This document shows positions 1,646 through 54,482 of a stretch of DNA of 55,413 nucleotides, piece by piece. Source of the stretch: Girardia tigrina (Eukaryota). Both the position numbers and the translations under genes were made by a program. Below the pieces are notes generated by a model. It did not search any database and had not been told where the DNA came from. It was given only the letters and a program-made list of their open reading frames with translations. Positions within the stretch are counted from its first letter, which is position 1. The number at the start of each line of letters is the position of its first letter. Location: assembly GCA_001938485.1 (NCBI GenBank), contig MQRK01241687.1:1-55413 (forward strand), given 5' to 3'.

Positions 1646-2059
1646 CTGTAAATTAATGTCAATTTATTTATATTTGGTAAATTCAATAATTATGTAACTT
1701 ATGTTAAAAATATTTTGCCTTAACTGATAGTTAAATCAAAGAACACATTTAGAGAAATTTTTATTCTCAACATCTAATAACATTGCTTTGTGATATATAT
1801 ATATATATATATATTATTGAAAAATATAATTTTTTTTAAATATAAAGCTTTTTTATATAATTATTAGACATGTTTTGATGCTTACATACACCATCATCAG
1901 CAATATTTGGAAATTTAGTATTTTAAAATTTGAAAAGTTCAATATTTTATTTGTTCTTAATAATATGATTTTAAAAGGTATATTAAGTTTAAATGGAATA
2001 ATTTCAAAAATATATTATAATTTATTAAAGTATTATTTGGTAATAGTGGCAACAATATT

Positions 2060-2325
2060 TTAATTAAAAATTTTAAGTATTGAAATAACCTTACTTTGCC
2101 CATTCTGAATGTTAATTGATGGTTTGTAGTGTCTTTTTAGTACAGTATCACAAAACTGACGCTCATAATGTGAATCGAATCCCTTTTGTAGAATAGAAAA
2201 CTCATTCTTTGAAATGGATGAGGTTCTGTTTTTACAACATAACCAATGATCAAGATCATTATTCCATCGACTCGTTTGCGAATGCTCGCTAATCCGGGTT
2301 AGATGACGATTTGTCTTTGCGATGT
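2060..2325 (-). pseudogene. Penelope-like element, C-terminal half of the GIY-YIG endonuclease
   Basis: Encodes IAKTNRHLTRISEHSQ...DHW...FSILQKGFDSHYERQFCDTVLKRHYKPSINIQ...ILKIFN, aligning with the GIY-YIG at 39902..40237. Confidence 0.8.
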
Positions 2326-4574
2326 GGGCCTCCCATCTCTGTAATGGTATTGAGCCTAAGGCTCTTTAGAGGGTCCACCCAAACTAAAGTCCTTAAGAGC
2401 CCCCCGATAGGCCTCCTACGGGGTCAGTGGCCTTCCGCCTCTGAGTAGTCGGCTTGCCAGTAACGAACGACCAACCATGGAACTTGGTACCATGGCCGTA
2501 CATGCCGTTGGCTGTTACGGTGGACGCGTAACAACCGCAAAATGGGCACTTGAATTGTCCTTTTGCAGTCTTGTAATCGGCTGGCAGTCGGTATTGTAGG
2601 TGCGTCTCTTCGGCATCGTCGTTCGGCTGTATCATCGGCATACTCACAGTTGCGTCCGGCAACTGAGGATTGGATTAGTTTGATGTCGGCTCTTCCTCGT
2701 TCTCTTCTTCCAAGTTTTCTTCTCTCTGGGCGTTGGATGTTGGCGCTTCTTGATGATTCTTCTGAATATGAATCCTTAGGAATCCAGCGGCCTTGTATTC
2801 CCTCGGACAGTGTTGACATTGATATTTTCCTTTATTCTGACGTGACTGAGCTTTCTTCTCTCTCTTCTTCCGCGGGATTAGCGCTGCTCCTTCGTGATCT
2901 CTTCTGAGATGCCTGTTTAACTCCTTCACTCCCGCATATTGTTTGTAACAGGCATCCATCGGGCAGCTGTGTTCTTTCTGACGAGGTAGCACCAGTCTTA
3001 GTGTTTGCTTGTCCCCGCTTCTTTGGATTCTCTTCATTCGGAATACTTTCTCGATCTTTCCATCCATCATCAGTAAGTTTTCCTGCAGAACGTCTCTTTT
3101 AAATTCACCGAAACTGTACTCGGCTCCAAAGAGCCAGTGAGCATCCACTCTGAGACATTCTACCAGATGTTGCTTTCTTCGAACGCTGATCTTCTTTCCG
3201 CCGATGAGATCGCATCCACTGATCTGCTTGACGTTCTCCGGGCATTCTCCTTCGTATTGTGTACGATTCTTCTCCGCGCGATGATATCCACTGAGCTTTG
3301 CAGTCCAATTGATATCTCATCCATCCTGATCCTTTCGGCTTTCAAAATCCCCAAAGTTCGCCGAGTACATAGATTGTGAAATGCTTTTAGCTTTTTCACG
3401 TGTACTTCATTTTTCCTCCAATTTTCACAGCTGTAGTAAACCACCGGGAATACACAGCTGCTAATTATTTTCTTCTTATTCCGGAGAGACAATTTGTTGT
3501 CTTCAACACTGGTCTGATAGTCCGTAATTTCGCAGCTCCTTTCTGATTTCTGGCTTTGATGTCCGTACCTGAGCTTCCTCCACTTTCAATTATCGATCCC
3601 AGGTAGCAGAATTCGTCCACCCATTCTATTCCGGCATTCAGCTCATCTCTTGCCGTAATGTACTTTGTTTCATTGAGATTCAGGATCTTTGTTTTCCCAA
3701 TGTTGATTTTGAGCTCCATATTCAAGAACACAGTGTTGAGACACGTGAGATTCCATTCGATATTTCCCTAGTCTTCGTCCAGTAAAAACAGGTCGTCTGC
3801 ATAAGCAAGTCTGTTCACGGTAAGCTCTTCCCCATTGTATTTTAGTTTCACACCACCTGATAGTCCTTCTTTGATCGCGATCTTAATTGCATGATCAAAG
3901 ACAAGGTTGAATAATAGAGGACCCAATACGCAACCCTGACGGACTCCTTTTTCCATACTGAATTTATCCTTTCCAATGCTTCCCGTGAAAACTTCATGAA
4001 ATTTCATGATGATACTTAGCATCCGATCCTGTAATCCAATTCCTTGAAGGTAATCCCAGAGAACTTTCCTGGGTACACTGTCAAATGCCTTTTCAAGGTC
4101 GATAAAAATAGCAAATACGTTTATGTTCTGGTATCTGGCCTCTTCTTGTATCTTTCGTAAGATACCAATAGCGTGCGCTGTACTTCTGTTTGGTCTGAAA
4201 CCAAATTGCCAGTCATCCAGTATCCTTTCGAGATGTGGCAGTAATCTATTTGCAATGATTTGGGCCAAGATCTTTCCTCCTACATCAAGTAGGAATATAC
4301 CTCTATAATTATTCAATTCCTTCTTTGAACCCTTTTCTTTGTATAGGATCACGACTTTCGTTGTTTTCCAAGCCTCCGGCAATTCTGCTCTTTCCTCCCA
4401 TATATCCACGAAACATTGCTGTCTCTTCTCAGTCAACTGGAGACCGCCCCATTTATATAGCTCTGGAATGATACCGTTGTTTCCAGCAGCTGTACCGTTC
4501 TTTAGTTGTCTAATAGCGGTACATACTTCTTCTACGTCCGGTGAGTGATCTATTTCGAGTGCTTGGCTCTATTC
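2326..4574 (-). mobile_element. 5'-truncated RTE-like non-LTR retrotransposon (RT plus three C2H2 fingers), disrupted by stops and frameshifts
   Basis: RT motifs NNYRGIFLL, QFGFRPNRST, FIDLEKAFDSV, GVRQGCVLGPLLF, LAYADD and FCYLGS. Flanked by an 8-bp duplication TGCGATGT at 2318-2325 and 4575-4582. Confidence 0.9.
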
Positions 4575-5300
4575 TGCGATGTACGAGTTTTGACACCCAT
4601 TATAATTAAATTTATATACCAGATTAGCTTGCAAACCAAAAACTGTTTTCGATTTATTTGAGAGGAAACTTTGAACTTTGGATGTGACAGAGACTACTTT
4701 AGCACTACATATTGTTCTACAAATACTCTTATTAAAAGCTCTAAATCCTTCAGAATATGAAATTTTAATAATTCGTTTGTATTCTTCAGTACTTTCTTCT
4801 TTTAATTGTTTCTTAACTCGTGTATATGTATATAATTTGTCTAAAGTTACCCTAATGTTGTGTCCTATTTACTTGTTTGCATACACATTGTCCCACAAGC
4901 GCCATCTAAGAATATTTCAACCCTGATTTGTAATTTCAAAACTGGACGACAAATTCCAAACTCTGTGAACAAGCCCTTTTATCATGCCCTCTGTATTTTT
5001 CCTCACAAAACCTCTGTGGTTCTGTGTAAAGACTTGTATCTGTTGCCTTTCTGAATAATTCAGTTTTATAGACTCCATTCATCCTAGTGACAAGAATGTC
5101 CAGAAAATGAAGTTTATTATCTATTTCCAATTCTGTGGTGAATTTAATATTAGGATGAAGACCATTCATGAATGTAACGAATGGATCTAAGAGGGATTGA
5201 TTGCTGAAAACCAAAAAGACATAATCTACATATCTCTCGTACAAAATATATGTAGATGATGATTGACTTTGAGGTTCGTTTACACTTAAAGCCGACAATA
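4575..5300 (-). pseudogene. Penelope-like element, RT C-terminus and N-half of GIY-YIG
   Basis: Encodes YERYVDYVF...MNGLHPNIKFTTELE...LHFLDILV...RKATDT, then NLVYKFNYNGCQNSYIA at the LINE junction. Confidence 0.85.
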
Positions 5301-6115
5301 GCTAACCGATTAAACACGGAAAATAGAAATTTCCTGATTATTGTAGACATCTTCATATCATTGATGAAAAGGAGTGTGATCCGTGTGATGATAGGGTTCG
5401 TTTTTTTTAATGCGGTGTTTTTAATCGTCTTTTCATAAAACTTTTAAGTACTTTTAGTTTTAAAAAGTATACATACAAAAGTCAACACTTGATGAGGAGT
5501 CATCTTTAAATTTCAGGTGTAACGATTTCTTTTAAGAAATATAATTCTCTTCAATTCGTTGTCTTAAAATTGGTATATTTTGTTTACAAACAAATTAATT
5601 TAACATAAAACGAAAGAGGAACTGTCCCTCAGAACAAACGTTATCCCTTAATATCACAATCTCCGAGATTGTTAATCATTAGCTGGCAACAACTTGGTTT
5701 ATTGTGACTGAAAATTGCTCTTATCAACGTTAACTCTTATGTTTTCAACTCTTCCACATTGCGGAAAGTTTCTTTGTGCTGCTCTTTTTCATTAACAAAA
5801 ATAATGATGCCGTATAACATTTAATTGTTCTCTTTCTCACTAATCGGCCTTTTTTCTAATCCTCATCATCAAATAAATATTTGATTAAATTTAAAGTTTC
5901 AAAAGTTTACTTTTTAGTGCTATTAAAAATGCATTTTTTGATAAATATAGAAACAAAAACGAACATAATTAAACCAAATAAATCTGAAAACTTCATCATT
6001 TACTGTTGGTCAAACTAAATGTTAATTGTTATTTTATAAATTTAAGTTTCAAAAATATGTTTAAACAATTTAAGTCTGTATTAACTAATATAGAAATATG
6101 GAAGCATCAAAAGAC

Positions 6116-6413
6116 CTTTTATAATTGGATTTCCATTGTCGAAGTATGTGTATGGAATTCTGATGAATTCTCCGGGGTCTCCGCATCCTCCTGTTTGTTT
6201 TGTAAAAGGTTCTGTTTTAAATTTGTTTTCTTTAGGTGTTGAAATGAAAATTTCTCCTTCTCCACATTGTTGCCATGTAATATTTTCGGATGCGATGATG
6301 TTCCACGAGGTTGGTACCACTATATATACGGTTCCGAATTGAACCCCTGTTATGTTTGACTTCATATTACCAGTCGCGGTCCACAGAGCAGCAGACGTTT
6401 CATTTATATATTT
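6116..6413 (-). CDS. CLCA-like paralog A, exon 2
   Basis: AG acceptor after a 49-nt intron. Encodes KYINETSAALWTAT...VQFGTVYIVVPTSW...PFTKQTGGCGDPGEFIRIP, matching the CLCA N-terminal pattern (PYTxQxxxCGxxG). 298 nt, the same length as paralog B exon 2. Confidence 0.88.
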
Positions 6414-6462
6414 CTAATGAATTCATTTTGAAACAGATGCATACAAAGAAAAATAAAAAAAC

Positions 6463-7147: not shown

Positions 7148-8066
7148 TTAGGTGTACAACTAATTAATTTCGTATTTGTTACGAAATAACCTTATATTCG
7201 TATTTGTTACCTCATTTCGAATTTGTTACTAACCTCATATCTATTTATGTAGTCAATNNNNNNNNNNNNNNNNNNNNNNNNNNNNNNNNNNNNNNNNNNN
7301 NNNNNNNNNNNNNNNNNNNNNNNNNNNNNNNNNNNNNNNNNNNNNNNNNNNNNNNNNNNNNNNNNNNNNNNNNNNNNNNNNNNNNNNNNNNNGCACATCG
7401 TTTACTCTCAGAAGCTTATCCTGAATATGCTCCAGAGGTTAGAGTATATCAGCAGTGGTTTGCACGATTTAAAAGTGGCGATTTTGACACAGAAGACAAA
7501 GAGCGATCAGATCCATCAAAAAAGTTTGAAAACAAAGAATTGGAGGCATTACTCGATCAAGATCCATGTCAAACTCAAGAAGAACTTGGAAAAACATTGG
7601 AAGTCACTCAACAAGCCATTTCTAAACGTTTAAAAGCAGCCGGATACATTCAGAAACAAGGAAATTATGTGCCACACGAATTGAGGCCGCGAGACGTTGA
7701 GAGACGATTTTGCATATCTGAAATGCTGCTTAATCGCCACAAAAAAGAAACCGTTTTTACATCGTATTGTCACTGGAGATGAAAAGTGGATTCATTACGA
7801 CAACCCAAAACGTAAAAGATATTATTTAAAGCCAGGCCGACCAGCCAAATCGACACCAAAGCCGAATTATTCATGGTTTGAAGGTAATGCTCTGTATTTG
7901 GTGGGATCAGAAGGGTGCGCTGTACTATGAGCTGTTAAAATCGGGCCAGACGGTCACGGGAGAGCTATACAGGCAACAATTGATACGTTTGAAGCAAGCA
8001 CTTTTATACTTAAATAAATGGTTTTTTTAATAAAAAAAATAAGAAATTAATTAGTTGTACACCCAA
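7148..8066 (+). mobile_element. Mariner transposon, internally deleted and frameshifted
   Basis: TIRs TTAGGTGTACAACTAATTAATTTC / GAAATTAATTAGTTGTACACCCAA with TA duplication. YVPHEL and IVTGDEKWIHYDN motifs present; the C-terminal catalytic part is missing. Contains an N gap. Confidence 0.9.
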
Positions 8067-10513: not shown

Positions 10514-12400
10514 TGAGAGGTTAATTTAAATTTGCATCTCGCCAAAATAATTTATTATTTTTTTAATTTAAAAGGTAAAATATTTTAATGTTAAAATGCT
10601 TATTAAATATTTTAAAATTAAAAAATGATATAATAAAAGAAAATCATAAAAAAATTAAATATCTATTTAAAAATAAAAAATATGTTTTTTTAATGTAACT
10701 ATTAAATATCATAAAATTAAAAATGATAAGAAAACCATTAAATATTTACTTATAAATAAAAATATTTTTACAGGTATATCAATTTATATATTTTAATACA
10801 AGTTATGAAACAATTTTAAATAAATTTTAAAATCAATTTTTAGATATATGTGAAAATTATTTAATAAATTTAAAGTTTAAAATTTGCTAAATTTCAAAAA
10901 TTGAATCTAAAAGAATTTAATAGATTAATTTGTGGCGAGATAATTAAATTAACGAGAAAATTTGTTTGAATATGTGAATTTTTGTTATATTTATAAATTG
11001 TGGTGTGAAATTATGAGTTGTGAATTTGAAAATAATGAAAATGACTTAAACGCTACTTACATGGCGAACAACGCTGCTTTGGACAACTTCACGAACCAAT
11101 TTTACCTGAAAAATTCAGGAAAGGTGACAATGTGCAGACGTTCATAGAAGAATGTGAAACATTTTTCCAATTCGCGGGAGTGGCAAAAGCAAAACAAGAC
11201 GTCATTGTCTTGTGTCTGTTGGACAGAGACATAAAGGAAAAGTATAAGACCGCTGACAAGTCGATAAGTGGTTATAAAAATCGACTTCGAAAAGCATTTG
11301 GGAGGACATCTTCGCTATTTGAAAATTGGTCGGAAGCATGCCGGTATAGGATGAAAGATGATATACCTGAATTTTTTTTCGAAAAAAATAGAAAAGATGA
11401 CAGAAAGAATTATGCAGCATAACATATCAAAAGAAAGTATAATGGAAACATTATTAATGAATTGTTGTGATGACAGGAATATCAAGAAAGAAGTTCGGAT
11501 GAATAATGTAAAAGGAGTAGAACATATAAAAGAAAAGATCAAAATGATACACGAGATTAAGAATATAGAGGATCAGATAAATTTTGTAAGAGATAACGTG
11601 ACGCAGAACAGACCCCGGAGTTACAAGGAGCCTGTGACTCAAAATAACAATAGATTTGAACAAAAGCATACAAGAGTCGGGGGCACAGAGAACACCAGAT
11701 TTACTAATGATCAAAACTGGGAGAGAAACCAATATATGAGCGTAACAAATAGACAACGGGAAACTAGGAAATGCTTCGGATGTGGAATGGAGGGACATAT
11801 TAGAAAAAACTGTACAACAAGGACAACAAATCAAATTCCATGGTTGTGGACAGCAGGGAAATGTAAGAAGAAACTGTCTGAATATTGAATGAAAACGGCG
11901 CCATAATAGAGGTCATCGGGAGGATGAATGTTACACCAAGTTAAACGGGAGAAGAAACCAACAAAGATCAACGAATAACAATTATAAAGGAGGGGGTTAC
12001 AATCAACGACAATATAGAGATAGAGAAGACAGGAGAAGAGGAGACAATAGATGATTTGTAGCGAACATTGAAGAAGAATATGAAGAATCGGTAATGGATG
12101 AAGACCACCCAAAAGACAGAGCCTCGACAGAAGGGGAGCCAGTTGGGACAATAAACTAATAGATACGAAGGACTCCCAAAATATCGGTATTTATAGTAAA
12201 AGTAGTATAACATATATTATAGACGTAATGAGTGACAAATCAGAAAATATTAAAGCAGTAGAAGGGAACGTAAACGATAAAGTTCGGAAGTTTATAAAAA
12301 ATGATGTATACAGAGGTAATTGTGGAAAATGTTTAGAACAAAAAGAGTTAGAACAAAAAACGTTGGCAAAATTTTAACACAGTATTTATGACAGTCTGAA
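10514..12400 (+). mobile_element. Gag-bearing LTR-type element with frameshifted gag and CCHC zinc knuckles
   Basis: Gag starts at 11061. Contains CFGCGMEGHIRKNC and two further degenerate knuckles. Shares its TG terminus with the copy at 1-1175. The 3' limit is approximate. Confidence 0.75.
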
Positions 12401-12959: not shown

Positions 12960-14224
12960 ATCACATGATGGTTATATAATGTATTATGATGCAAATTCAC
13001 TATATTCATCATCGATGACAAAATATTTACCAACAGGAGAAATGGGATGGTGTCGAGAGGAAGAACAATTAACATATCAGAAATCGGAAGAAGAATCCGA
13101 AAATGGATACGTTTATGAAATCGATTTACGATATCCAAATGAATTAAAGCAGAAATCATTTTATTATCCCTTTTGTCCGGAACGGTTTTTACCGAAAACA
13201 CCGTTGGAAGAATTGTCATCATATGAGAGAATGGTTTATCCAGAACGACCAGATCGAAAAGAAAAATTGGTATAATCTTTTCTCGTTAAACACAAATATA
13301 TTATCGAAGGATGAACACTGGATTTCTATTTGCGTCAAGGAATGGAATTGGTAAAAATCCACATGAAATTAGAGTATAAAAAATCACCTTGGTTGAAACC
13401 ATATATTGAGTTCAATATCCAAAAAGGAGAGAAGCAGGAAAAAAGACATTTGGTGATTTTCTTTTCAAATTTATGAACAATTCCTTTTGTGGAAAAACTT
13501 TGGATAATGTTCGAAATCACTCAAATATTAAAATAGTTAATAATCAAAAAAAATTGAAAAGTTAGCAGGCAAACCAGAATAAAAATCCATAACGGCATTC
13601 AATCGGATATTGTGTGCTGTTGAAATGAGGAAGACTTCGATAAAATATGATAAATTCAATTATATCGGTTTTACTGTTTTGGAATTATCAAAATTACTGA
13701 TGTTCCAATTTGCTTACGAAGCATTGCATTCGAAATGGAATTTTGAGTTCGGAAATGTTCAGATCCATTATACTGATACCGATTCTTTTTTCGTACAAAT
13801 TTATGATAGTTTAGAAAATATTAACGAGAAATTAGCACATTGGTTACATCCATCGGATTTGGGGAAATTCAAAGACGAAATGGAAGGAGTAAAAGTAATT
13901 GAAGAACTGGTTGCAATAAAGTCAAAAGAAAATAGTTTCAAACATATTCTGGTATCAAAAAAACAGAAAGGAGAAACTTGTAAAAACAAAGGAGTCAAAG
14001 ATGTGACTTTCAATGATCGCGTTAATATTTTATTCAATAATGAAATGGTTATGAAAGAAGAAAAACATATTATATCAAAATTACATGAAATAAATATTTC
14101 ATCGAAAGCCAAGCAAGCATCGTCAGGATACGACAATAAAAAACGTTATCCATTTAATCACGTAACATCTTTTCCTATAGGTTTTAATAAAAACGAATTA
14201 GCGGAAAAATATATTTTATTTTAA
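12960..14224 (+). pseudogene. Protein-primed DNA polymerase B, Polinton/Maverick/adintovirus type, frameshifted
   Basis: Motif A YYDANSLYSSSM, then YEIDLRYP and PWLKPYIEFN; motif B KFMNNSFCGK; YIGFTVLELSKLLM; motif C YTDTDSF; LGKFKDE, KNKGV and YDNKKRY. Confidence 0.9.
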
Positions 14225-16385: not shown

Positions 16386-17460
16386 TTAAAAGTCAAAAAC
16401 CGATTGAAAATTTTTTATTAATTTGGACGGATTAACCGTCATCTTCAGAACAACTAATTTTTTTAAAAAAGAAATGGACTTATATACCACCGGTAATAAT
16501 TGAGCTATAAATATGTCATCATTAAATCGTTTAAAAACCCTCAATAAATTAGTCGAGAGTGAGTCTTGAACGTTAATTTCAGGATCCAAAGATATTACTT
16601 TTCACATGACACTCTTTCCCAGTAATTCTTAAAGATTTAATTAATTTAATTAAATTTAATTTTAAAGTTATGGATGTTTATCTATCCTTTGCTATGTTTA
16701 CTATGTCACGCAATATTACTTCCACTTTCCTTAGGACTGTGTTCATGGATTATCTTACAGAGATGACGCGAAGTCACTCCGATGTATGTGGCATTGCACC
16801 AATTATATGTATATTGGTAAATTTGATCCGAACACAATCCTAACAGTGTTGAAGATTTATTACTAAACATATCTTCAATATTTTGGGTACGGGAGATTAT
16901 TTTTAAATGTATAGTATTATTTCTACTGCTTTTAAAATAGAATTTTTAATGTTTTAAAACCTTTTAAATAAGGTACGGTTAAAATATAAGACTTTCATCA
17001 CATCGCCTATATCTATATGAAAGAGCACATGAACGAAAAATAAAGCATTTAATTATATTTCTACGATATTGAGATTCACAAAAACTATTCGGTGTTGTAT
17101 ATAACGCCGTATTAGTTTTCTTTCTCAGTCTCATAAGAACCAATCTTCCTCTCAATTAACAAATCCAGAAACGATAATTTATTGTCATTTTATGTCTCCA
17201 TAATAATCTTTACATTTGGGTGCAATGCCACATACATTGGAGAGACTTTGCGTCAACTCTGTAAGAGAATCCAGGAACACAGTCCTAAGAAAAGTGGCTT
17301 AAGAAAGTGACGTATTGATTGCACAATCGTTACCGGCAGTATATAAGTACATAATTTTTTAAAAAAATTAGTTGTTCTGAAGATGACGGTTAATCCATCG
17401 AAATTGGTAAACATTTTAAATTGGCTTTCGACTTTAATAAAAATAATTATTGATACAAGT
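16386..17460. mobile_element. Fold-back Penelope-like remnant: GIY-YIG/RT fragments with inverted terminal segments
   Basis: Minus-strand YIGVTSRHLCKIIHEHS and WERVM...INVQDSLSTNLLRVF. Segments 16390-16500 and 17325-17435, and 16735-16800 and 17220-17290, are inverted copies. Confidence 0.75.
17373..17413 (+). ncRNA. Minimal type I hammerhead ribozyme (Penelope-associated)
   Basis: TGTT-CTGAAGA-T-GACGG-TTAAT-CCATC-GAAA-T-TG-GTA-AACA: full core, 4-bp stem I, one mismatch in stem II. Confidence 0.7.
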
Positions 17461-18579
17461 TATTTTTATTCATTTTTTATATTCATTAAATTATTTTAGC
17501 ATTACTTTTTATTACGTAGAAAACGATAACAAATTCATTTTATAAAAGTTTTAAACACAAATTACTAATAGTCATTGTTAATTAATTATTTTTATTAATA
17601 TAGTATTTTATAAGGATTATTAAAATTTCATTATAATCATGTTTGATATTATATTTATTACTCCTATATTCATTATCTTATTAAAACATTTTTCATTAGT
17701 TTTTTAATTTATTAATAGAATATATAATATTAATTAAAATATTTTTAAAAATCAAAAAAAAAATTCAAAACTATTATAACTAAACTGTGAATGAATTTTC
17801 TAAATAAATAATTTTGCGAGATGAATTTTTAACTAACTCCTCATAATTATCATAAATATTAAAAAAATTTTATTAGTATATTAGTAGTCTTTGATTGAAA
17901 AAAACATAGTAAATATTCTTATTATAATAATTAAAATATTGTTCATCTTTCTTAATATTGTATTCGTTATATTTTTTTAAATTATGATTATATCACTATT
18001 TTATCCCTTATTTTATTAAAAACATTATTTTGTTGTTACTAATTTTGAATATAACTTTGAATAGTACTATCTCAAGAACATTTTGTAAATTAATTAATTT
18101 ACGAATATAGAAATGAGCAATAAAATCACAATATTTGATACGTTTCCTTAAAGATATATAATCTTCTTTTTGATTTAAAAATAATTTGAAATAAGTTGAA
18201 ATATATTTATTTAAATAAATATTATTTTATTATTGTGCGAGAATAAGCATATAAAATTAAAAGTATTTCATCTAAATATAATTCATCCAGAATCTTTCAG
18301 AAGTCGTTCTGGATGTTAAATAGTAAATATATAATAGATTATAAAATATCATTTTCTCTGAACTTAATAATTATCTCATAAAAAAATTTGAAACTACTAA
18401 ATTATATTACTAATTATTTTATCAAGGTTTGAGGTTTTTTATATTAATATAAATGATTTAAAAATTTAAACACTTTAATATAAAATAATAATATTAAATA
18501 AAATCGAATAATAAGAAGTTGTGTAAGGACGTTAATATATTAAAATTCATTTAATTTTTTACAAGCTTTTATTACGTTT

Positions 18580-26049: not shown

Positions 26050-27186
26050 AATATAATAAAAAATATAAATATAATAAAAATATATAATAATGAAATATTA
26101 ACCATTTTAAAATGAAAAAATATAAATAAAATATATGTACAGTATAACGTCAAAATTTATCTAAAATTAGGGATCGCCAAAACAGAGTTGTAAACATCTC
26201 CATTTTCATTTTCTTCAATTTCATATTCCAAAAATGTATCATTTTCACTATAAGTAATCATTAAGAAAATCATCTTCCTCCATTGGATCCTGAATATCTG
26301 CTTAAAAATTTTTAAATTTATGGCAAAAAGCAGAATTAATTAAAGCAGGCTTAATGTAAACAATCGGTTTTTAAAAAATCTAAATTTATATTTAATTTTA
26401 TTTTAGGCGTATAAAAACTTTATTCTTTTTAGGTCATTTGTTTCTTTAATTTTCTCATTTATTTTTAAAGTAATTTTCAGAGTGTATTATTCGATATTTT
26501 TATTAAATATTCAGTTGCATTCAAAATTCTTATTTATTCGTGTATTGCTCTCAATAAACAAGAAATAAATAATATATTGTGACTTCTTTCATTCCGCTTA
26601 ATTATTTATAAAATATGAAATTATGAAATATTATCATTTATTTATGTAAAATTGATGATACTTCTTTCGCTTAATACAATATACGAAACTAAATATATAA
26701 TCACGGATAAAAATATGAATGAAACAACTGAATTGTATTAAATATATACTTGAAAGTTTTATGTCTGCGATGGGTCTAGCAGACGACTGAAAGCTTCTCT
26801 AAAAGGCCAACCCTTAGAGAGCTATAGGTTCACTACCATCTTAAAAAGAGTGGGAGACCCACATATTTAAATATATTTAATTTTAAATAATAAATATAAA
26901 ATAACTTAATATATTAAACATAATGTATTAAATGATTTAAACAAAATTTTCAATTTAGTTTTACATTTTTAATTATTTTTCCTTTTACAAAAAAATAATA
27001 CAATGCATTTAAAGAAAAATACATTTTCAACTTAGTTTTATTAATATTTTTAATTGCATCTAGAAAATGATATACAGTAGACTCCGTATAATGCGAGTTT
27101 ATACCACACGATTTCATACAATATCTCATAGTACTAATATCTCATTTTATGCGATGCATTTTTACATGTAAACATCATTCACGTTA
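26050..27186. repeat. Segmental duplication, copy 1 (paired with ~28840-30199)
   Basis: Long stretches are near-identical to 28840-30199, with an ~250-bp indel near 26340/29120. Confidence 0.9.
26761..26864 (+). mobile_element. ~100-bp structured insert, probable 3' end of an RTE-like LINE (second copy at 29776-29879)
   Basis: Aligns with the LINE 3' end at 2322-2425 (minus strand), ends in CCCACAT and keeps the same helices. Confidence 0.6.
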
Positions 27187-28820
27187 CAATCCTAACAGTG
27201 TTGAAGGTTTATTACTAACCATATCTTCATGTCTTTAGAATTCCAGTTATGTTTAGATAACAAAGATATTTAAAATATTGTTTACAAAATTTTATTACTA
27301 TGTTTTTAATATTCAAATACGATTTATATAGAAATTCAACTTCATCATTTTAAACTTATTTCGGACTTAGACCTTAGATTTAAATTAGACCTTAGTTTTT
27401 AATTATATTTTAGGTAGGGGAGATTATTTTTAAATGTATAGTATTATCTACTGCTTTTAAAATAGAATTTAATCTTTTAAAACCTTTTAAATAAGGTACG
27501 GTTAAAATATATAAGTTCTAAACTATTTTTATTAGAGTTACAAGATTGATCTTGAACATCTGTAAGTTTATTATTATTACTTTTATCAATTAATTTATCA
27601 ATAGTTTCTTTCGTTAGCATATCAACTACTGATTTGTAAAATCCATTATCATGTAATAATTTTGTTAACTTATTAAGACTTTCATCACATCGCCTATATC
27701 TATATGAAAGAGTCCATGAACGAAAAATAAGGCATTTAATCATATTTCTACGATATTGAGATTCACGAAAACTATTTGGAGTTGTGTATAACGCCGTATT
27801 AGTTTTCTTTATCAGTCTCATAAGAACCAATCTTTCGCTAAATTAACAAATCCAGAAACGATAATTTATTGTCATTTTATGTCTCCATAATGAACTTTAC
27901 ATTTTGGTGCAATGCCACATACATTGGAGAGACTTTGCGACAACTCTGTAAGAGAATCCAGGAACACAGTCCTAAGGAAAGTCGCCTAGGAAAGTGACGT
28001 ATTGATTGCACAATCGTTACCGGCAGTATATAAGTACAGTCATAGTTTATGTAAAATGACGGTTAATCCGTCGAAATTGTTAAATATTTTAAACTGGATT
28101 TCTACTTTAATAAGAATAATTATTGATACAAGTTATTATTATTCCTTTTTTATATTAATTATATTATTATTATTAAATGCATTAAATTATATTAACATTA
28201 CTTTTTATTACGAAAAAAACGATAGCAAATTAATTTTATAAAAGTTTAAACACAAATTAGTAATAGCCATTGTTAATTAATTATTTTTATTAATATAGTA
28301 TTATTATAAAGATTATTAAAATTTCATTATAATCATGCTTAATATTATTATTTATTACTTCTATATTCATTATCTTATTAAAAACATTTTTGATTAGTTT
28401 TTTAATTTATTAATAGAATTGTTTATGTTTTCTATTGTAATTTTAATTATTTTATTATTTTTAATTTTACTGACTTATCTTATTTAATGAGTGTTGTTTA
28501 ATGTATGTCGTTGGAAATCTTCGTTAAGATTAATAAGTGTTTACTTATTTCGCACTAAATCTTTTAACAAAGTTAAGTGAATCTTCGTGATAAAATTATA
28601 GTTTTTAAAATTACTGAACAATATTTTAAAATTAGTTGTTTTCACCTCCAATCTGCAAACCTTCGTATGTGCAGCAATATTACTCCCATTACCCAATCGT
28701 CCATGCTCCTGAATCCGTTTACAGAGATGACGAGACGTCTCTTTATGTTTATGTTGCAATCTGGTTTATCAATTTTCGTGTAATGGGTGCAGCGCTACAT
28801 ACATTGGAGAGACGTCTCCA
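27187..28820. mobile_element. Penelope-like remnants, largely a duplicate of 16836-17720 plus a further GIY-YIG fragment
   Basis: ORF 27477..27830 (KKTNTALYTT...MIKCLIFRSW) and ORF 28541..28759 (ETSRHLCKRIQEHGR). Decayed hammerhead near 28050-28080. Confidence 0.8.
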
Positions 28821-28839: not shown

Positions 28840-30199
28840 AAAAATTAAATATAATAAAAATATATGATAATGAAATATTAACAATTTAAAATGAAAAAAA
28901 TATAAATAAAATATATTTACAGTATAACCTCAAAATTTATCCAAAATTAGGGATCACCAAAACAGAGTTGTAAACATCTCCATTTTCATTTTCTTCAATT
29001 TCATATTCCAAAAATGTATCATTTTCACTATAAGTAATCATTAAAAAAATATCTTCCTCCATTGGATTATGAATATCTGCTTGATAATCTTTAAATTTAT
29101 GGCAAAAAACAGAATTTGCCAAAACTCATTGATTTTCAAAAGATTGTTTTTAAGTGGTTAAAATGGGAAGTGGGCTTATTTTAGAATTGGCCAAATTTAA
29201 AGATTATACTGTATTTTTACTTCTGTTGTATTTTTAAGTTAATCCTTTAAATAATAATAATTACCTCCATTTTAATTTAGAACAATTGCAATTCAATAAA
29301 ATTCCAACTTTCATTTTTATTTATATTTTAAAATTTCGCTGAAATATTTGGATTAAGTTTAATGTAAACAGAAATCGGTTTTTAAAAAATCTTCTAAATT
29401 TATATTTAATTTTATTTTTAGGCGTATAAAAACTTTATTCCTTTTAGGTCATTTGTTGCTTTAATTTTCTCATTCATTTTTTAAGTAATTTTCAGAGTGT
29501 ATTATTCGATATTTTTATTAAATATTCAGTTGCATTCAAAATTCTTATTTATTCGTGTATTGCTCTCAATAAACAAGAAATAAATAATATATTGTGACTT
29601 CTTTCATTCCGCTTAATTATTTATAAAATATGAAATTATGAAATATTATCATTTATTTATGTAAAATTGATGATACTTCTTTCGCTTAATACAATATACG
29701 AAACTAAATATATAATCACGGATAAAAATATGAATGAAACAACTGAATTGTATTAAATATATACTTGAAAGTTTTATGTCTGCGATGGGTCTAGCAGACG
29801 ACTGAAAGCTTCTCTAAAAGGCCAACCCTTAGAGAGCTATAGGTTCACTACCATCTTAAAAAGAGTGGGAGACCCACATATTTAAATATATTTAATTTTA
29901 AATAATAAATATAAAATAACTTAATATATTAAACATAATGTATTAAATGATTTAACGAAAATTTTCAATTTAGTTTTACATTTTTAATTATTTTTCCTTT
30001 TACAAAAAATAATACAATGCATTTACAGAAAAATATATTTTCAACTTAGTTTTATTAATATATTTAATTGCGCCTGGAAAATGATATACAGTAGACTCCG
30101 TATAATGCGAGTTTATACCACACGATTTCATACAATATCTCATAATACTAATATCTCATTTTATGCGATGCATTTTTACATGTAAACATCATTCACGTT
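28840..30199. repeat. Segmental duplication, copy 2
   Basis: Near-identical to 26050-27186, including the structured 100-bp insert and the left part of the MITE. Confidence 0.9.
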
Positions 30200-30289
30200 A
30201 TACAAGTCTTTCTTCGTTCAACGCGATTTCCTATAACGCTATTTCATACAACATATATCATATTAATCGCGTTATACGGGAGTCTACTG
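30089..30289. mobile_element. Tigger/pogo-type MITE (truncated copy at 27075-27186)
   Basis: TIRs CAGTAGACTCC(C)GTATAA with TA on both sides. Confidence 0.85.
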
Positions 30290-34445: not shown

Positions 34446-35750
34446 TTGGGTTGAGGAATAAGTTCCCGCCGTTTTTTGAAAAATTAAAATTTTATTTTTA
34501 AACAGAAAAGTTACTACAAATTAATAACAAATATATTCTCCGCCATTGTTCAAGACTTCTTCCCAACGTTCAACGAGTTTTTCAATGTCTCTTTGGTAGA
34601 AATCGCCCGGCCTTGACTCGAAAAATTCAGCCAACCAAACTTGCAGTTCTCCATCATTGTTGAACGAAACACCACGCAAAGCGTTAGAAAGCGAACGGAA
34701 AAGATGAAAATCAGATGGAGCCAAGTCAGGTGAATACGGAGGGTGCGGTAACACTTCCCAACCAAGCGTTTGAATGGCTTCCTTTGTCATTCTGGCAATA
34801 TGAGGACGTGCATTGTCGTGTTGAAAAATAACGCCATGTTGTCGATCCGGATGTTTTTGTCTTATAGTGGTGTTGTGTCTATGTAGCTGTTGAACATAAA
34901 GTTCTGCGTTAACTGTTTGCTTTCGAGGAAGCAATTCATAATGAATAATTCCTTCCCAACCCCACCAAACGCATAGCATTGTCTTTCGTGGATGAAGATC
35001 CTGTTTTGCTCGCGGTGTCGATTGTTCTTCTCGGCTACGCCATTCTTTGCGCTGTTTCATGTTGACGTACAGACACCATTTTTCATCACCCGTTACAATT
35101 CGATAAAGAAATTGTTGCTTATGACCGTGAGTAGAGCGATGACGGGCAAGCAAAGTCGCCGAAATTGTGGATCGCTGGTTTTTGTTGTTTTCGGTCAAAA
35201 GATGTGGGACCCAAGCTCCCATTTTTTGAACTTTTCCCATTGATTTCAGGTGGTTCACGACAGTTTTTTGATCACAGTCCATTTGTTTCGCCAATTCTCG
35301 AGTGGTTTGACGCGCGTCTTCATGCAAAAGTTTGTTCAAACGCTCTTCATCGAATTCATTTAGTCGTCCTGAACGAGGTGCATCCTTGAGGTCAAAATTG
35401 CCAATTTTAAATTTTGTGAACCAATCACGAGCGGTTCTATCAGCTATAGCACCTTTTCCGTATACAGCACAAAGCTCTCGGGGAGCGTCTGCGGCTTTGG
35501 CGCCTCGATTATACGCAAACAATAGATGGTGTCGGAAATGCTCATTTCTGTCGACTTGACATTCCATTTCAATGGTCTAAAAATCGACAAAAATTAATCT
35601 GAATAAAAAAATAAAAAACACCATTTTAAAGCAAAACAATAGCTTTCAAATAACATATAACATTACATCAAAAAATTTGATTTAAATATTAAATTGATTA
35701 AAAATTGATTAAAAATTCAAAAAACGGCGGGAACTTATTCCTCAACATAA
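34446..35750 (-). mobile_element. Full-length mariner transposon
   Basis: ~35-bp TIRs TTGGGTTGAGGAATAAGTTCCCGCCGTTTTTTGAA (two mismatches in the right copy), TA duplications, 1305 bp. Confidence 0.95.
34521..35567 (-). CDS. Intact DD34D mariner transposase, 348 aa
   Basis: WVPHLL, IVTGDEKW, HDNARPH and YSPDLAPSDFHLF motifs; 34 residues between the second and third Asp. Confidence 0.95.
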   Translation of the reverse strand: MECQVDRNEHFRHHLLFAYNRGAKAADAPRELCAVYGKGAIADRTARDWFTKFKIGNFDLKDAPRSGRLNEFDEERLNKLLHEDARQTTRELAKQMDCDQKTVVNHLKSMGKVQKMGAWVPHLLTENNKNQRSTISATLLARHRSTHGHKQQFLYRIVTGDEKWCLYVNMKQRKEWRSREEQSTPRAKQDLHPRKTMLCVWWGWEGIIHYELLPRKQTVNAELYVQQLHRHNTTIRQKHPDRQHGVIFQHDNARPHIARMTKEAIQTLGWEVLPHPPYSPDLAPSDFHLFRSLSNALRGVSFNNDGELQVWLAEFFESRPGDFYQRDIEKLVERWEEVLNNGGEYICY

Positions 35751-37160: not shown

Positions 37161-38446
37161 TTAGAGTGAACCAAAAGTCTTTTCGTATTTTCTACGTCTT
37201 TTTGTTCAATTGTTTCTTATTACCAAATAAAGATATTTTATATACATATGTTATATGTTTTTAAAGCTCTTGAACTGCTCTATCACTATATTTATTAAAA
37301 CTTCTAATTAGTCGTTAATATAATTTTATGGTCTTTTAGAAAAATCATGGAAGATTTTGAAATTTGTGTTCTTTTACGCCATTACTGGAAATATGGCTTA
37401 AACGCAACCGCAGCAACAAGGAAGATATGAGAAGTTGAAGGCGATAATGTGGTCTCAAATCGTACTGCACAAAATTGGTTCAAAAGGTTCAACGAAAGCG
37501 ACATTGACCTCGGAGACAATGCACGTTCAGGCCGACCTATCACTGTAGATTCCGGAGCACTTCGTGAAGCCGTCGAGACAAATCCGTCAATAAGTACTCG
37601 CAGATTGTCGGTCAAACTCGATATTCCTCAAACATCCATTGTACGACACCTTCATGCTCTTGGCCAGGTCAATAGACGATGTCGATAAGTACCTCATGAA
37701 TTGACACAAATTCAAGTCGAAAAGCGTTTCGATACTTGTCGGAAATTGCTTGAAAATCCGTGCGATGACCGTTTCATCCGTCGAATTGTAACTTGCAATG
37801 AAAAGCGGGTTTACTTCAGTAATCCAAACCAACAAAATCAATGGTTGGACCCCAGATAAATGGCGAAACCCGTAGCGAAACGAGATCTTTTCTCAAGGAA
37901 GGCACTTTTGTGTGTTTGGCGGAATTTCGAAGGCGTGATTCACTTCGAACTGGTTCCAAATAGTCGTACCATGGACGCTGACCTTTACTGCGCCCAACTT
38001 CATCAAATTTATGCGGCACTTGGCGAGAAATACCCCGCTTTGATCAATCGAAAGCGAGTTCTTTTACAACAGGACAATGCAAAACTGCACACCACCAAAC
38101 AAACAAAGTAAAAAATCAAAAATCTCGACGTCTTTGAACTTCTTCCACACCCGGCGTATAGTCCGGATCTTGCGCCATCCGACCATCACCTTTTCCACTC
38201 TATGTCACACTTTCTTCGTGGTCGCAGCTTCAATAATCTGGCCGAGGTCGAAAACGGGTGTCACCAGTTCTTCGCTTCTAAGAACAAGGATTGGTACCGC
38301 AGCGGGATCGCACAACTTGCCCATANNNNGGTTCAAGCTATAGATTCAAATGGCCTTTACTTTGAAACTTAAATGTTTTTTATTTGTTGTAAAATTATGT
38401 TTAAATTTTTAATAAAAAATACGAAAAGACTTTTGGTTCACCCTAA
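37161..38446 (+). mobile_element. Full-length mariner with a pseudogenised transposase (37347-38372)
   Basis: TIRs TTAG(A/G)GTGAACCAAAAGTCTTTTCGTATTTT with TA duplications. QDNAKLH and YSPDLAPSDHHLF motifs, several in-frame stops. Confidence 0.92.
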
Positions 38447-39184: not shown

Positions 39185-39235
39185 GTTTGATTATAATATT
39201 ACCACTTTTAAAATTTTATTAAATAATTGTATCAG

Positions 39236-39533
39236 ACATATCTTAATGAAGCTTCGAAAGCATTGTGGACAGCTACAAGTAATATGAAAGAAGGTAAAAG
39301 AGGAGTCCAATTCGGAACTGTATACATAGTGGTCCCCGAATCATGGAATGTAACCAAATTTGATAATGTAACTTGGCAGCAGTGTTCCAGGGCCAATATT
39401 TTTATAACGACTGACAAAGACAATGGTGGCAAAACGACCCCATTTACAAAACAAATTGGTCGATGTGGAGATCCGGGAGATCACACGAGGTTTCCTGTTT
39501 CGTTTTTTGACAAAGATGTAACTTCTTCAAAAG
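39236..39533 (+). CDS. CLCA-like paralog B, exon 2
   Basis: Follows a 51-nt intron. Encodes TYLNEASKALWTAT...VQFGTVYIVVPESW...PFTKQIGRCGDPGDH, with a phase-1 donor. Confidence 0.88.
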
Positions 39534-39778: not shown

Positions 39779-41026
39779 TTTTATAATCAAGAACGCCATT
39801 AAAATCAAATTTTTGTGTCGCAATATATTTCGGTGGATTTTCCACCATCTTTAGGCTGAATTAACGACAATTTCGCTGTCTTATATATGGCAAATTGATG
39901 ATTATGCAAACATCTTGCGTAATAACAAATTAAATATTTTTAACAAAGTGGAAGAGAGACTTGTTTGTACATTAATGAACGGATTAAGTGTTTTAATCAA
40001 TAATGCTTCACAAGTAACTCTTTCCCAATAATTTTTAAAATTACTGCACAATATTTTAAAATTAGTTGTTTTCACCTCCGATTTACAACCCTTCGTATGT
40101 CCAGCAATATTACTCCCACTACCCAATCGTCCATGCTCCTGAATCCGTTTACAGAGATGACGAGACGTCTCTCCAATGTATATAGCGTTGCACCCATTAC
40201 ACGAAAATTGATCAACCAGATTGGAACATAAACTCAAAGGAGTACGAGATTTATTGCTGAATATACTTTAAATTTTGTAAGATTTTGAAATGATTTTTAA
40301 ACTTAAATTTTTACTATCAATTGATTTTAAAATAGACGATTTAAATTTTGTGTAACCTTCTGAATAAGGAACGATTAGCGTATATCCAACATTAGAATTT
40401 TCATTAGATAATTTATCGGGTTTTAATTCTTCTTACCCTCATGTTCTTTATTCATTAATTTATCTATCGTTTCATTAGTTAACTTCTCTAAAAATGATTT
40501 CGAATAGCCATTTTTCTGCAATAGTTCTGTTAGTTTATCTATGCTTGCATCTGCTTTTCCATATGTTGATGATAGAGACCAACATCTAAATAACAAACCT
40601 TTTATCATACCTCTATTATACTTGGTTTCACAGAAGCTTTTAGTAGTAGTATATAACCCTGTATCTGTTTTCTTTCTATAAATCTCTGTCTCGTAACGAC
40701 TCCCTTTTCTCTCAATTAACAAATCTAAAAATGGTAAAACATTCTTCTCAAGCTCAACCGTAAAAACAATATTAGAATGAAGGGAATTCATATAAGATAA
40801 AAACGGCAACATATTTTCACGCTCTTTGAAGACAAGAAAAATATCATCAACATATCGTTTAAAAGCTAAAGGTCTAGCACCCGTGAACAAGTGAATTTTA
40901 TTTTCAATATTAGACAGAAAAATGGATGCAAGTGTTGGTGCCAAAGGGGAACACTTGGCAACACCATCTACCTGTTTATACCTATTATCAATTATCATGA
41001 TTTTAATGGCGTTCTTGATTATAAAA
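39779..41026 (-). mobile_element. Penelope-like element (RT C-half plus GIY-YIG) in intron 2 of paralog B
   Basis: YKQVDGVAKCSPLAPTLA, FKRYVDD, LPFLDLLI and CNGCNAIYIGETSRHLCKRIQEH. Bounded by a 29-bp inverted repeat; decayed hammerhead at ~39819-39857. Confidence 0.9.
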
Positions 41027-41687
41027 TTTTGCCATTATTTTTTAGATTTCTCATTAAGGATTTAATATTGTTTCAAAAATTGATTAAATTTATAAAGGAC
41101 TTTTTAAAATTAAAAAAACTGTTTAAGTTTTAATGTTACGACAAGTAAAAAGTTTGAATAAATTAAAATGTCAATAAAAGTTATAGAATATGATAAATTA
41201 AAATCAGGATATAATTTATCATAATTTAAACGAAATTAATTAAGAAGTTGGCGAAATTAAAAATTCAATAAACGACAATTAATTTGAAAATGCGTGTTTG
41301 TCGTAGTAATAAATTTTTATGTTAAATATGAATTCGGATTGTGAAATGTTAAATAGCGACAATATTTTGCCCATATAGAAGAACTGTATTTGATGTAGGA
41401 TAATATATATCTTTTCTTACACTAGTGATTGCAGTTTCCGATGCTTTGAGGCTCAATAATACTTCATCGTTTTCTGAAGTCCATGAACCGAGACAACTCA
41501 TAACTATAGTTTCGAGATTAACAGTTAACCTGATTGTATCTTTTAAAATAAGTGTTTCATTTTCTTGAATTTAGAAAGACCATTTTAATCATAAGAGTGT
41601 ATCTAAAAGAAAAAAAAATTTAAGATAATTTATTTGATTTTTAAATAATTATAAATATTTAAAAAATGACGATAGTGAATTTTTAAA

Positions 41688-42157
41688 AGTCAAAAAATTT
41701 TCGTCAGAATATATTGTGATTAATTTCGGCGGATCAACCGTCATCATCAGACTGATGATTTACATTTATAAATGTAATGGGTGTGACGCCATATACATCG
41801 GAGAGACTTGTCGTCATCTCTGTAAACGGATTCAGGAACATAATCGCAGGGAAAGTGATAGCAATATTGCTCAACATAAGAAGAACTGTTTGAATAGTAA
41901 AGTTGATGTAAGTAATTTTAAGATTTTGTGTTCACAATTTGATAATTACTTGGAGAGGGTGATGTGTGAAGCATTGTTGATTAAAATCAATGTCCAAACA
42001 CCATCCTCTTCAACTTTATTGAAAGTATTTTCATGATTTAAATGACATAATGATTACATAAACATTGCTTTGATATATAAACGCGAGTATATCATTGTTA
42101 ATTCAGTTGATCCGTCGAAATTAATCACAATATATTCTGACGAAATTTTTTTGACTT
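41688..42157 (+). mobile_element. Penelope-like GIY-YIG fragment with an ~50-bp inverted terminal segment
   Basis: ORF 41716..42036 encodes YKCNGCDAIYIGETCRHL. Segments 41689-41738 and 42105-42155 are inverted copies. Confidence 0.85.
41716..41752 (-). ncRNA. Minimal type I hammerhead ribozyme
   Basis: GT-CTGATGA-T-GACGG-TTGAT-CCGCC-GAAA-T-TA-ATC-AC, with a palindromic stem III/loop (ATTAAT). Confidence 0.6.
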
Positions 42158-52728: not shown

Positions 52729-54482
52729 GTACTTTACATATACCTTTGTATAACTGTCCATATATTCATTATGATAGATTTTTAAATTATCCGTTGATAC
52801 TAAAATTTAAATTATTATCAAAGGATCATATCTACATGTATTCAGAATTAAGTTTAATGTTAAAAGGTTAATTCATGAACTAAATCCTTTATTTTGCGCA
52901 AAATAGAACATGAAATGAATAAACAAATAATAAAAAAATAGTAAAGAAAATAATAATGCGAAAGCAATGAAGAATAAAACAGACACGTCAAGGTTACAAA
53001 CCAGCTAAATTATTTTAGCTAAATAAAATACGTTAAGAAGCTCAAACAAAATAATTTAAGTACCATATTCTGAAGGAAATAGGATATGTAAGAAGCATAT
53101 TTGCAAGAGAATTTGTCGTTTTAAAGGGTTTACAATGACATCAAAACGTTCTCTGAAATACATGGAAAATAAATTGTTGATTGCAAGTTAAACTTGATTA
53201 GAAATTAATTGTAAAAATTACATTTGACAGTGCATTGCCAATGGGGAAAAGTATCAGTAGAAAGAAGAAGTAATGCATCTCAGAATGTCTACGAAGAGAT
53301 ATACAGTGGCTTTTAGGGGATGAGGTGATCTACCATGACTTCATGAATTATATAATTCACAGAGATCCCACTGTAGATTGTAAAAAGTATTTGAACGTCT
53401 TATTCAGATTCAGCCGATTCCATTGAACAAGAACAGATGTACTGAGACTAGTCAAGGAGAGAGAGAAGCATCTGCAAAGTTTTAAAAGTGAGATGTTACA
53501 AGGAGTTCGCCTAAGAATAGAAGCTAAACAGGCATCTCAAGAAAGACAATAAAGCGTTGCCTACTGCTGCTTTGACAGAAACAACAACAATGATTATTAT
53601 TAAAGAAGACGCACAAATTTTCAAATTTATTTGCTGTTAAGAAACTTATAAAACAAACAGGAAGCCAGCAAAACATCTTCTAAGGATCAAAAATTGAACG
53701 AAGCGAACATTTTTCAAATCTCATCAAATCAATCACAAAAAATCAACTACATTAACAACAAAAATCCCAAAGATATTTCAGAAATTCCAAATTCTTTAGC
53801 CACGGATCATTAGACTATCTCAACCGTGGTAGAAGAAAGAATCAGTGCCGTAGAAACACTGATCTTTTAGGATCACAAATTTAACTGCTAGAATAGAGTT
53901 CAAAACGCCATCTCGTGGCTGTGTAAGTCTATAAATACAGTCAAAAGTAAACAAAACCATGGAAATACAATCCATGAATGGTCGTTTGTTACAAGAAAGC
54001 CAAAAAGATCTCGGAGACTGAAGCAATCTAACTCCATATTAGACCTATTGGAGAGCTGCAATAAACTCATTTTATTTGATGGACATTTTAACAGGTTATA
54101 TGCTCAAAACAACTGGAAGAAATCTTAGGCCTACATTGGAAATACAAATAAATATCTCAAAACTCGAGTCAGTGAGCATTTACTATTACATCGATCGAGA
54201 AAGGTTTTTGATCAAACTTCACACTGTAAAATTCTTTTTCTGCTTCAAAGGATACTGTTTCTGTTTTCAGCAGTTTGGAGCAGCAGTTCTGCGAATCGCT
54301 ATTTATAAGACAGTACACATTATTAATTAATATTCAAAATAGGCAAAGTTGCGCCATTTTAAATATTTAATTAAATAATAAAAAATGTCAATGATACCCA
54401 ATGATATCTTGAAATAACAAAATATAAAATTTAAAATATCCAATTAAAAACAATATTTAAATAAATACTCAAATATTTATAA

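Follow-up and report, generated by a model that had tools for sequence, protein, structure and literature searches.

We identified a four-helix RNA motif at the 3' end of an RTE-like LINE in a DNA sequence of Girardia tigrina (the window, which here means the whole stretch of 55,413 nucleotides that was analysed). The motif proved genuine, as four sequences share it and differ by compensatory changes in its helices. It likely acts as a template-recognition and start-site signal for target-primed reverse transcription (TPRT). The overall picture that we consider probable is that the motif serves as the reverse transcriptase (RT)-binding and TPRT start signal of a tail-less, three-finger RTE-like LINE, of which at least two subfamilies have inserted at one and the same YIG position of Penelope elements. 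In this picture, targeting of Penelope is a property of some subfamilies of the lineage, and insertion at one position is the more surprising finding. The 3' RNA motif of this three-finger lineage is itself apparently undescribed.

The window is animal-like DNA of 27% G+C with many mariner and Penelope fragments. The LINE that carries the motif, copy A (Table 1), has a frame interrupted by stop codons and frameshifts. Using tblastn, we matched it in three pieces to residues 416-1138 of the intact protein P0001 with 91-94% identity, and Pfam RVT_1 and zf-C2H2 were detected in it. Copy A is flanked on both sides by a 10-bp target-site duplication. The original prediction let the LINE end with CACAT; this was wrong, because ACAT opens the duplication (2325-2316 / 4582-4573) and the true end is nucleotide 2326. 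The predicted absence of poly(A) was borne out, and a microsatellite tail is likewise absent. Unlike the short-repeat 3' ends of RTE-type elements, the 3' sides of copies A, B and D and of L001, a relative from metagenome contigs, showed no tandem repeats. The letters AC directly follow all four of these and a further metagenome relative, L024, so the terminal A may be common to element and target.

Other features were observed elsewhere in the window. Copies of mariner transposase lie at 34521-35576 (-), 7393-7782 (+) and about 37390-38370 (+), the first of which is an open 351-aa frame with Transposase_1 and HTH_48. Open frames at 13583-14224 (+) and 11355-11888 (+) are polymerase-like and gag-like, respectively, the latter with a weak zinc-knuckle match; the former, which gave no Pfam hit, presumably resembles a fragment of a family-B DNA polymerase. 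Two exon-like stretches on opposite strands, 6169-6418 and 39231-39480, are 67% alike, and their translation may resemble CLCA-family proteins.

Table 1. Positions of the LINE copies, the terminal RNA motif of copy A and the interrupted Penelope element in the window.
Feature	Position	Strand	Remarks
Host Penelope upstream of insertion (RT tail, first GIY-YIG half)	4573..5400	-	BLASTP residues 1-33, E 1e-8
5' target-site duplication copy, copy A	4573..4582	-	YIxE codons of the Penelope endonuclease
Copy A, RTE-like LINE (5'-truncated, broken)	2326..4572	-	RT, three C2H2 fingers, terminal RNA motif
P1 hairpin	2402..2423	-	Arms 2423-2419/2406-2402, 12-nt loop; coding, PVGGLSG
Pseudoknot loop strand (predicted)	2409..2413	-	Complementary to 2331-2327
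P2, long variable hairpin	2352..2401	-	Arms ~2401-2384/2369-2352; constrained folding
ORF stop codon	2393..2395	-	Within P2 5' arm, 67 nt upstream of element end
P3 hairpin, length varies	2333..2347	-	Arms 2347-2344/2336-2333; first two C-G pairs invariant
Terminal strand, predicted partner of P1 loop	2326..2331	-	Last bases of the element
3' target-site duplication copy, copy A	2316..2325	-	9/10 identical to 4582-4573
Host Penelope downstream of insertion (second GIY-YIG half)	2063..2325	-	BLASTP residues 30-113, E 2e-14
Copy B, motif-only insertion, different subfamily	26762..26860	+	A+T-rich DNA, outside YIG site
Copy C, segmental duplicate of B	29777..29875	+	29359-30200 = 26351-27186, 97.5%
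Duplication of D, 5' copy	53220..53229	+	3' copy 54133-54142, 8/10 identical
Copy D, decayed, 5'-truncated, second subfamily (P0004/P0139-like)	53230..54132	+	tblastn P0139 903-1188, 35%, E 4e-35

The sequences and helices predicted for 2322-2425 and its relatives were all found in place. The motif overlaps the 3' end of the ORF: the finger-bearing frame passes through P1 and terminates inside P2. The 3' arm of P2 continues into a conserved junction word, GGYTCANTACC (invariant columns of alignment A3), and conserved letters are concentrated at the P2-P3 junction. The knot, in which the loop of P1 would pair with the terminal strand, measures 5 bp in copy A and 7 bp in B and L001; in L024 it has 6 bp in the common register and 7 with the last base. 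G-U pairs occur in the helices on the sense strand. Two extra bases at 2389 were seen in a minority of contigs in all four sequencing runs aligned, and on our reading by hand they would close the internal loop of P2. Summed contig depth was higher over the motif than over the RT, which was not used as evidence. Two tRNA-like readings were rejected. As a tRNA T-loop or B box, the junction word fits L024 only, and its bases pair in P2 and P3; as for a CCA-ended tRNA-like terminus, the end of L001 differs and the final A can be target-derived, so this is not a general feature.

P0001 is an intact ORF of 1145 aa with an AP endonuclease (Exo_endo_phos_2), RVT_1 and three C-terminal C2H2 fingers, in agreement with the RTE-type layout, in which one ORF of some 900-1200 aa encodes both AP endonuclease and RT. 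An RT tree was generated with FastTree and midpoint rooting from 126 rows, after 5 of the 131 candidates had been dropped for short coverage. Multi-finger proteins formed their own branch (45 of the 126 rows, SH-like 99) beside other hits, several with DUF6451, in a tree that holds neither curated references nor an outgroup. On the basis of such a tree, the lineage is labelled RTE-like and is not filed as a member of RTE. Two proteins of Schistosoma rodhaini, P0063 and P0082, fell within the multi-finger branch; assembled genomes thus exist for it. AlphaFold predicted the C-terminus as three fingers, each confident by itself but loosely linked to the next (pTM 0.33), and Foldseek and Atlas searches with this part returned generic C2H2 proteins only, which is uninformative on RNA or DNA binding.

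Penelope-like elements are described as encoding an RT followed by a GIY-YIG endonuclease, with two cysteines between GIY and YIG (PMC8557442). The expected order of RT and GIY-YIG was found around copy A, and, as far as homology identifies it, the target is a Penelope-like element. The flanks of copy A represent two GIY-YIG halves that overlap at YIxE when compared with an uninterrupted protein of the window, which scores PF01541 above the cut-off; the upstream flank also matched the Penelope RT of the window by tblastx. Empty Penelope copies show CxxC before YIG, and in the flank of copy A one cysteine of the pair is retained. Several Penelope-like fragments, decayed and lying in either orientation, occur at 16500-17800, 27400-28800 and 39900-41900 and include six uninterrupted YIG sites. 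These six other YIG sites of the window are empty: five read LCK..H after the YIG motif (another Penelope subfamily), and one is cut short.

Contigs of four sequencing runs (X1, X7, X13 and X18) were aligned to positions 1800-4800. The empty site was represented by one X13 contig that joins 2064-2300 to 4573-4800 with 18 letters between, and loose ends at 4573 in X1 and X18 also read as the empty site. Among the 15 X1 joints listed (191 in total), 10 link ten different LINE positions to 4573 (6), 4577 (2) or 4578 (2). Of the remaining five, four are internal to the LINE and one is internal to Penelope, and none of the X1 joints listed connects the LINE to another place in the flank; insertions elsewhere cannot show as joints, and the analysis is blind to them. 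In a second table of X1 joints, two more junctions to 4573 were found among the 12 rows listed of 105. Overall, at least 12 different 5'-truncation points in X1 are joined to 4573, 4577 or 4578. One X1 junction, about 125 nt long (2423 + 27 nt), corresponds to a motif-length copy at the Penelope site. Under a uniform null over the 228-nt flank, such clustering has a probability of roughly 1e-17, a rough figure. Junctions at 4577 and 4578 (4 of 12 cases) imply duplications of 6 and 5 bp; those of copies A and D are 10 bp. An X1 contig that runs from 2459 back to 2322 was also seen, as expected if a short copy inserted again beside a filled site. The LINE and the Penelope flank were both present in runs of four studies, some labelled freshwater sediment or leaf litter, which may be read as a shared host group or as horizontal transfer.

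Specificity for the YIG codons is not lineage-wide, as copy B, L001 and a group of loose ends at 2343 lie outside YIG sites. The loose ends at 2343 come from 138 X1 and 8 X7 contigs (agreement 0.53-0.6) and have B-like termini; their flanks are mixed, A+T-rich and not YIG sites, and the flank of L001 is not a YIG site either. Just 3' of the element in L001, at 4773-4864 of that locus, there is a long imperfect inverted repeat, which may be the target of that subfamily. A weak Rfam match at this repeat was far below the gathering score.

Copy B consists of the motif alone. It is 47% G+C, versus 22% and 8% in its flanks, and has kept P1, P2, P3 and a 7-bp loop-to-end match, as predicted. No target-site duplication was found in the flanks of B, nor in those of L001. 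The sequences at 26761 and 29776 had been counted as two observations of a free element of about 100 nt; over 104 nt they show 100% identity, and both lie in an 843-bp duplication (97.5%), so they represent one insertion. Copy B is best read as an extreme 5' truncation. It is unlikely that it belongs instead to a non-autonomous, SINE-like family made of the motif alone. B does start within 1-2 bases of P1, and many contigs, those with loose ends at 2343, combine B-like termini with mixed flanks; however, the window holds a single insertion, no tRNA was detected, B contains no A or B box, and truncation gives such lengths at the Penelope site.

The short copies also bear on the possibility that the knot mainly forms or protects the RNA 3' end, as an exonuclease block, a poly(A) substitute or an end coupled to termination, while the RT recognises something else. 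Terminal bases buried in a helix, the absence of a tail and a stop codon placed in the P2 5' arm in L001 and L024 as well as in copy A would all suit such a role. Motif-length insertions occur (copy B and the junction of 2423 + 27 nt), and the last paired base is where copies end. Both observations agree with a start signal without being exclusive to it, and the two roles can coexist. As the main function of the knot, we consider 3'-end protection quite improbable.

Metagenome contigs were scanned with a protein alignment, and 72 loci were obtained without using the motif for selection. The multi-finger group accounts for 5 of the 72, and 3 of these 5 include the 3' end. L001 and L024 (32% and 35% protein identity, respectively), both chosen by protein homology alone, carry the four-helix architecture between the end of the ORF and the end of the element or contig. 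The contig of L015, a relative with two fingers, includes the 3' end but showed no motif; in the multi-finger loci L002 and L030 the 3' end is missing. In an alignment made by hand of A, B, L001 and L024 only (D was left out as too decayed), compensatory changes occurred in 10 of 25 helix columns among sequences that are 42-61% alike, in support of the covariation originally claimed. Two-sided changes were distributed over P1 (4/9 columns), outer P2 (1/5), P3 (2/4) and the knot (3/7). The peptide encoded over P1 is PVGGLSG in P0001, P0002, P0004, P0009 and P0164, with differing residues before it; in the L001 cluster 7 of 8 members have KIEAGNGT, and L024 has ARGAGSGT. Because this peptide varies by branch while the pairing persists, the constraint acts on the RNA. 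Two functions had been proposed for the motif. The recurrence at the same place in two relatives of 32-35% identity, together with the compensatory changes, makes an RT-recognition element the best reading; the other proposal, a ribozyme, is weak.

We compared the match between the terminal strand and a hairpin loop with that in 5000 dinucleotide shuffles per sequence. Shuffles did as well in 17 cases for B, 23 for L024 and 40 for L001, and in 528 for copy A and 1401 for the decayed copy D. The predicted loop-to-3'-end match was thus seldom equalled by shuffles in B, L001 and L024, but in copy A alone, with 5 bp, it is not significant. Unconstrained nested folds of A, B, L001 and L024 put the terminal strand elsewhere and lie 3-10 kcal/mol below the nested part of the motif alone; the knot duplex (-9 to -12 kcal/mol) renders both states roughly comparable, with a pseudoknot penalty of our own estimate. 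Single-strand folding z-scores were weak, -0.8 for A and -2.2 for B. A competing longer P1 hairpin was found in the folding of copy A, and, when folded freely to minimum energy, both A and L024 form extended P1 hairpins. These extended hairpins and the 528 shuffles that equal copy A would be expected if the hairpins alone matter and the loop-to-end match is not formed, or is one state of a switch. Against this, B, L001 and L024 have 6-7 Watson-Crick pairs made of different letters, and 3 of the 7 knot columns are two-sided; we judge the hairpins-only explanation very unlikely.

That the motif is not a recognised named family agrees with an Rfam search of the window and the motifs, in which no family matched. 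Nothing reached gathering scores in the window, nothing was found at E up to 10 on the copy A motif, and B and the metagenome loci gave only weak, unrelated matches. Employing blastn and nhmmer over the window, we found no additional motif copy, and the decayed copy D was recovered by neither. Protein-guided scans of viral contigs revealed no relative; six viral-contig stretches from a DNA pattern scan showed no P1 or knot by eye and no profile score and were put down to chance. Contigs of prokaryote genomes yielded 6 loci, 0 with the motif. A structure descriptor, designed after the motif had been seen, found no match in the other metagenome loci; it gives 0-3 matches per 381-kb shuffle and was not used for significance. 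HRIMA motifs are described as nearly all restricted to metatranscriptomes (PMC10085705).

The evidence for one-position insertion includes a second subfamily. Copy D occupies the same YIG position in another Penelope copy and ends with AGGCCT, which is followed by YIGNTNKYLKTRVSEH codons. By base composition, the match between the two copies of its duplication has a chance of about 0.001. A and D are different LINE subfamilies, the RT of A being about 59% identical to P0139; their Penelope hosts are only 67-74% alike, and their duplications are separate. Several X1 joints carry extra letters, and one set, translated by hand, encodes the end of a third subfamily, P0164. It could be supposed that the clustering at YIG is not targeting and that one old LINE-in-Penelope composite was amplified and later deleted in parts. 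Penelope copies are numerous, and the filled-site joints all come from one run (X1), with a short side of less than 30 letters in 9 of 10 joints of the first table. Deletions, however, would not share one breakpoint at the edge of the duplication or carry extra letters, and a single composite does not fit A and D with their different subfamilies, diverged hosts and own duplications. We regard this history as highly improbable.

HDV-like and twister ribozymes are present in RTE-type elements (PMC6765202, PMC8501958), and a pseudoknotted junction of several stems, in which a few linker bases (A-N-U-A, G) are invariant, could suggest that the motif is a self-cleaving ribozyme whose class is new or permuted. 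The HDV-like ribozymes known from R2, RTE and L1Tc share with the motif the retrotransposon context and the pairing of a 5' hairpin region with the last strand; they differ in lying at the 5' end of the element and in needing P3, L3, P1.1 and J4/2, none of which was found here. The original prediction was right that the HDV P3 is lacking: no P3 lies between the loop strand and the P1 3' arm, and the L3 word is absent from the sense strand in 4 of 4 copies. The hammerhead word CUGANGA is absent from the same strand in 4 of 4 copies, and a crude HDV-like descriptor found no fold in the 5' regions of L001, L002 and L015. Rfam gave no match, either in the window at the gathering score or with the motifs at E up to 5-10, and the core words are missing from the sense strand. 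The motif lies entirely upstream of the element end, and a cut making this 3' end would need every catalytic part upstream of the cut, an arrangement that no small ribozyme class is known to have. A ribozyme has very little likelihood.

The start-signal model is drawn by analogy with A-clade R2, in which a 3' pseudoknot, zinc-finger contact and downstream homology are combined. In this model, the element protein would bind the P1-P2-P3 junction in cis while translation terminates in P2, and the AP endonuclease, perhaps with the help of the fingers, would nick the bottom strand where the word ACAT begins. The tail-less RNA, without a poly(A) of its own, probably reads through into Penelope sequence. 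Its first Penelope-derived bases could pair with the primer, the knot marking the start of copying, and early termination would yield copies from about 100 nt up, including copy B. The high-copy, dispensable Penelope target may provide a safe harbour, and each LINE insertion would break the nuclease of that Penelope copy. Going further, it is conceivable, though doubtful, that the lineage, as yet unrecognised, includes Penelope-specific hyperparasites that home to the YIG codons, disable Penelope copies, ride Penelope transcription and set the start of reverse transcription by a new class of finger-read, tail-less pseudoknot completed by the first target-derived base.

Template recognition is structurally detailed for R2 and L1 and not for RTE in the account given in PMC13708176, where gene writing is named as an existing use of RTE elements. 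The question is open to direct testing, since the motif is compact (about 100-125 nt), its helices are clear and P0001 provides an intact natural protein. If a single-ORF AP-endonuclease element outside Tx1/R1 inserts site-specifically, target specificity would have arisen one more time, and such an element would offer a handle on the specificity determinant, be it the endonuclease, the fingers or the pairing of RNA with primer. Breakage of one retrotransposon's nuclease by another, at the active-site motif, would be a clear case of conflict between mobile elements.

Neither the motif nor the Penelope YIG target was reported in the open-access literature searched; a catalogue entry (Repbase, Dfam) may exist. 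The LINE resembles members of the RTE clade (RTE-1, SR2, SR3/Perere-3, BovB and plant RTE) in its single ORF of about 1150 aa with AP endonuclease and RT and in its short 3' region with a structured 3' end. The 10-bp duplications of A and D are within the RTE range, given as 7-15 bp in PMC6007223, which also describes a 3'-terminal hairpin, supported by compensatory changes, in plant RTE/Au SINEs. It differs from RTE in having three C-terminal C2H2 fingers, where a single C-terminal finger is called relatively rare in RTEs (PMC9115989), and in having no microsatellite tail and a four-helix knot that overlaps the ORF. Its targeting of one position (A, D and at least 12 junctions) also sets it apart from RTEs, for which short repeats at the end and no tight choice of insertion site are described (PMC1291365, PMC6007223, PMC3747384).

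A-clade R2 elements of birds and turtles are likewise site-specific non-LTR elements with three zinc fingers and a pseudoknotted 3' RNA under about 100-125 nt. In PMC11601368, the 3' pseudoknot is needed for insertion and ZnF3 contacts the knot, and in vertebrate R2 about 4 nt of homology to the downstream target is also needed. In R2, however, the nuclease is restriction-like, the fingers are N-terminal and the target is rDNA, whereas the protein here has an AP endonuclease. The R2 knot lies 5' of a GGAAAAG hinge and a terminal stem (PMC11601368), while the motif here is closed by the extreme 3' strand across two hairpins. No sequence relation to the R2 3' pseudoknot was found; the likeness is in working only.

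Tx1- and R1-clade elements resemble the LINE described here in that they are LINEs with an AP endonuclease and occupy fixed positions within multicopy repeats. The target of Tx1 is a DNA transposon. In the survey of target-specific non-LTR elements in PMC4640811, transposons are among the targets listed, and the target-specific families belong mostly to the RLE, Tx1 and R1 groups and not to RTE. The difference lies in the target, which in the present case is the catalytic-motif codons of the nuclease of another retroelement.
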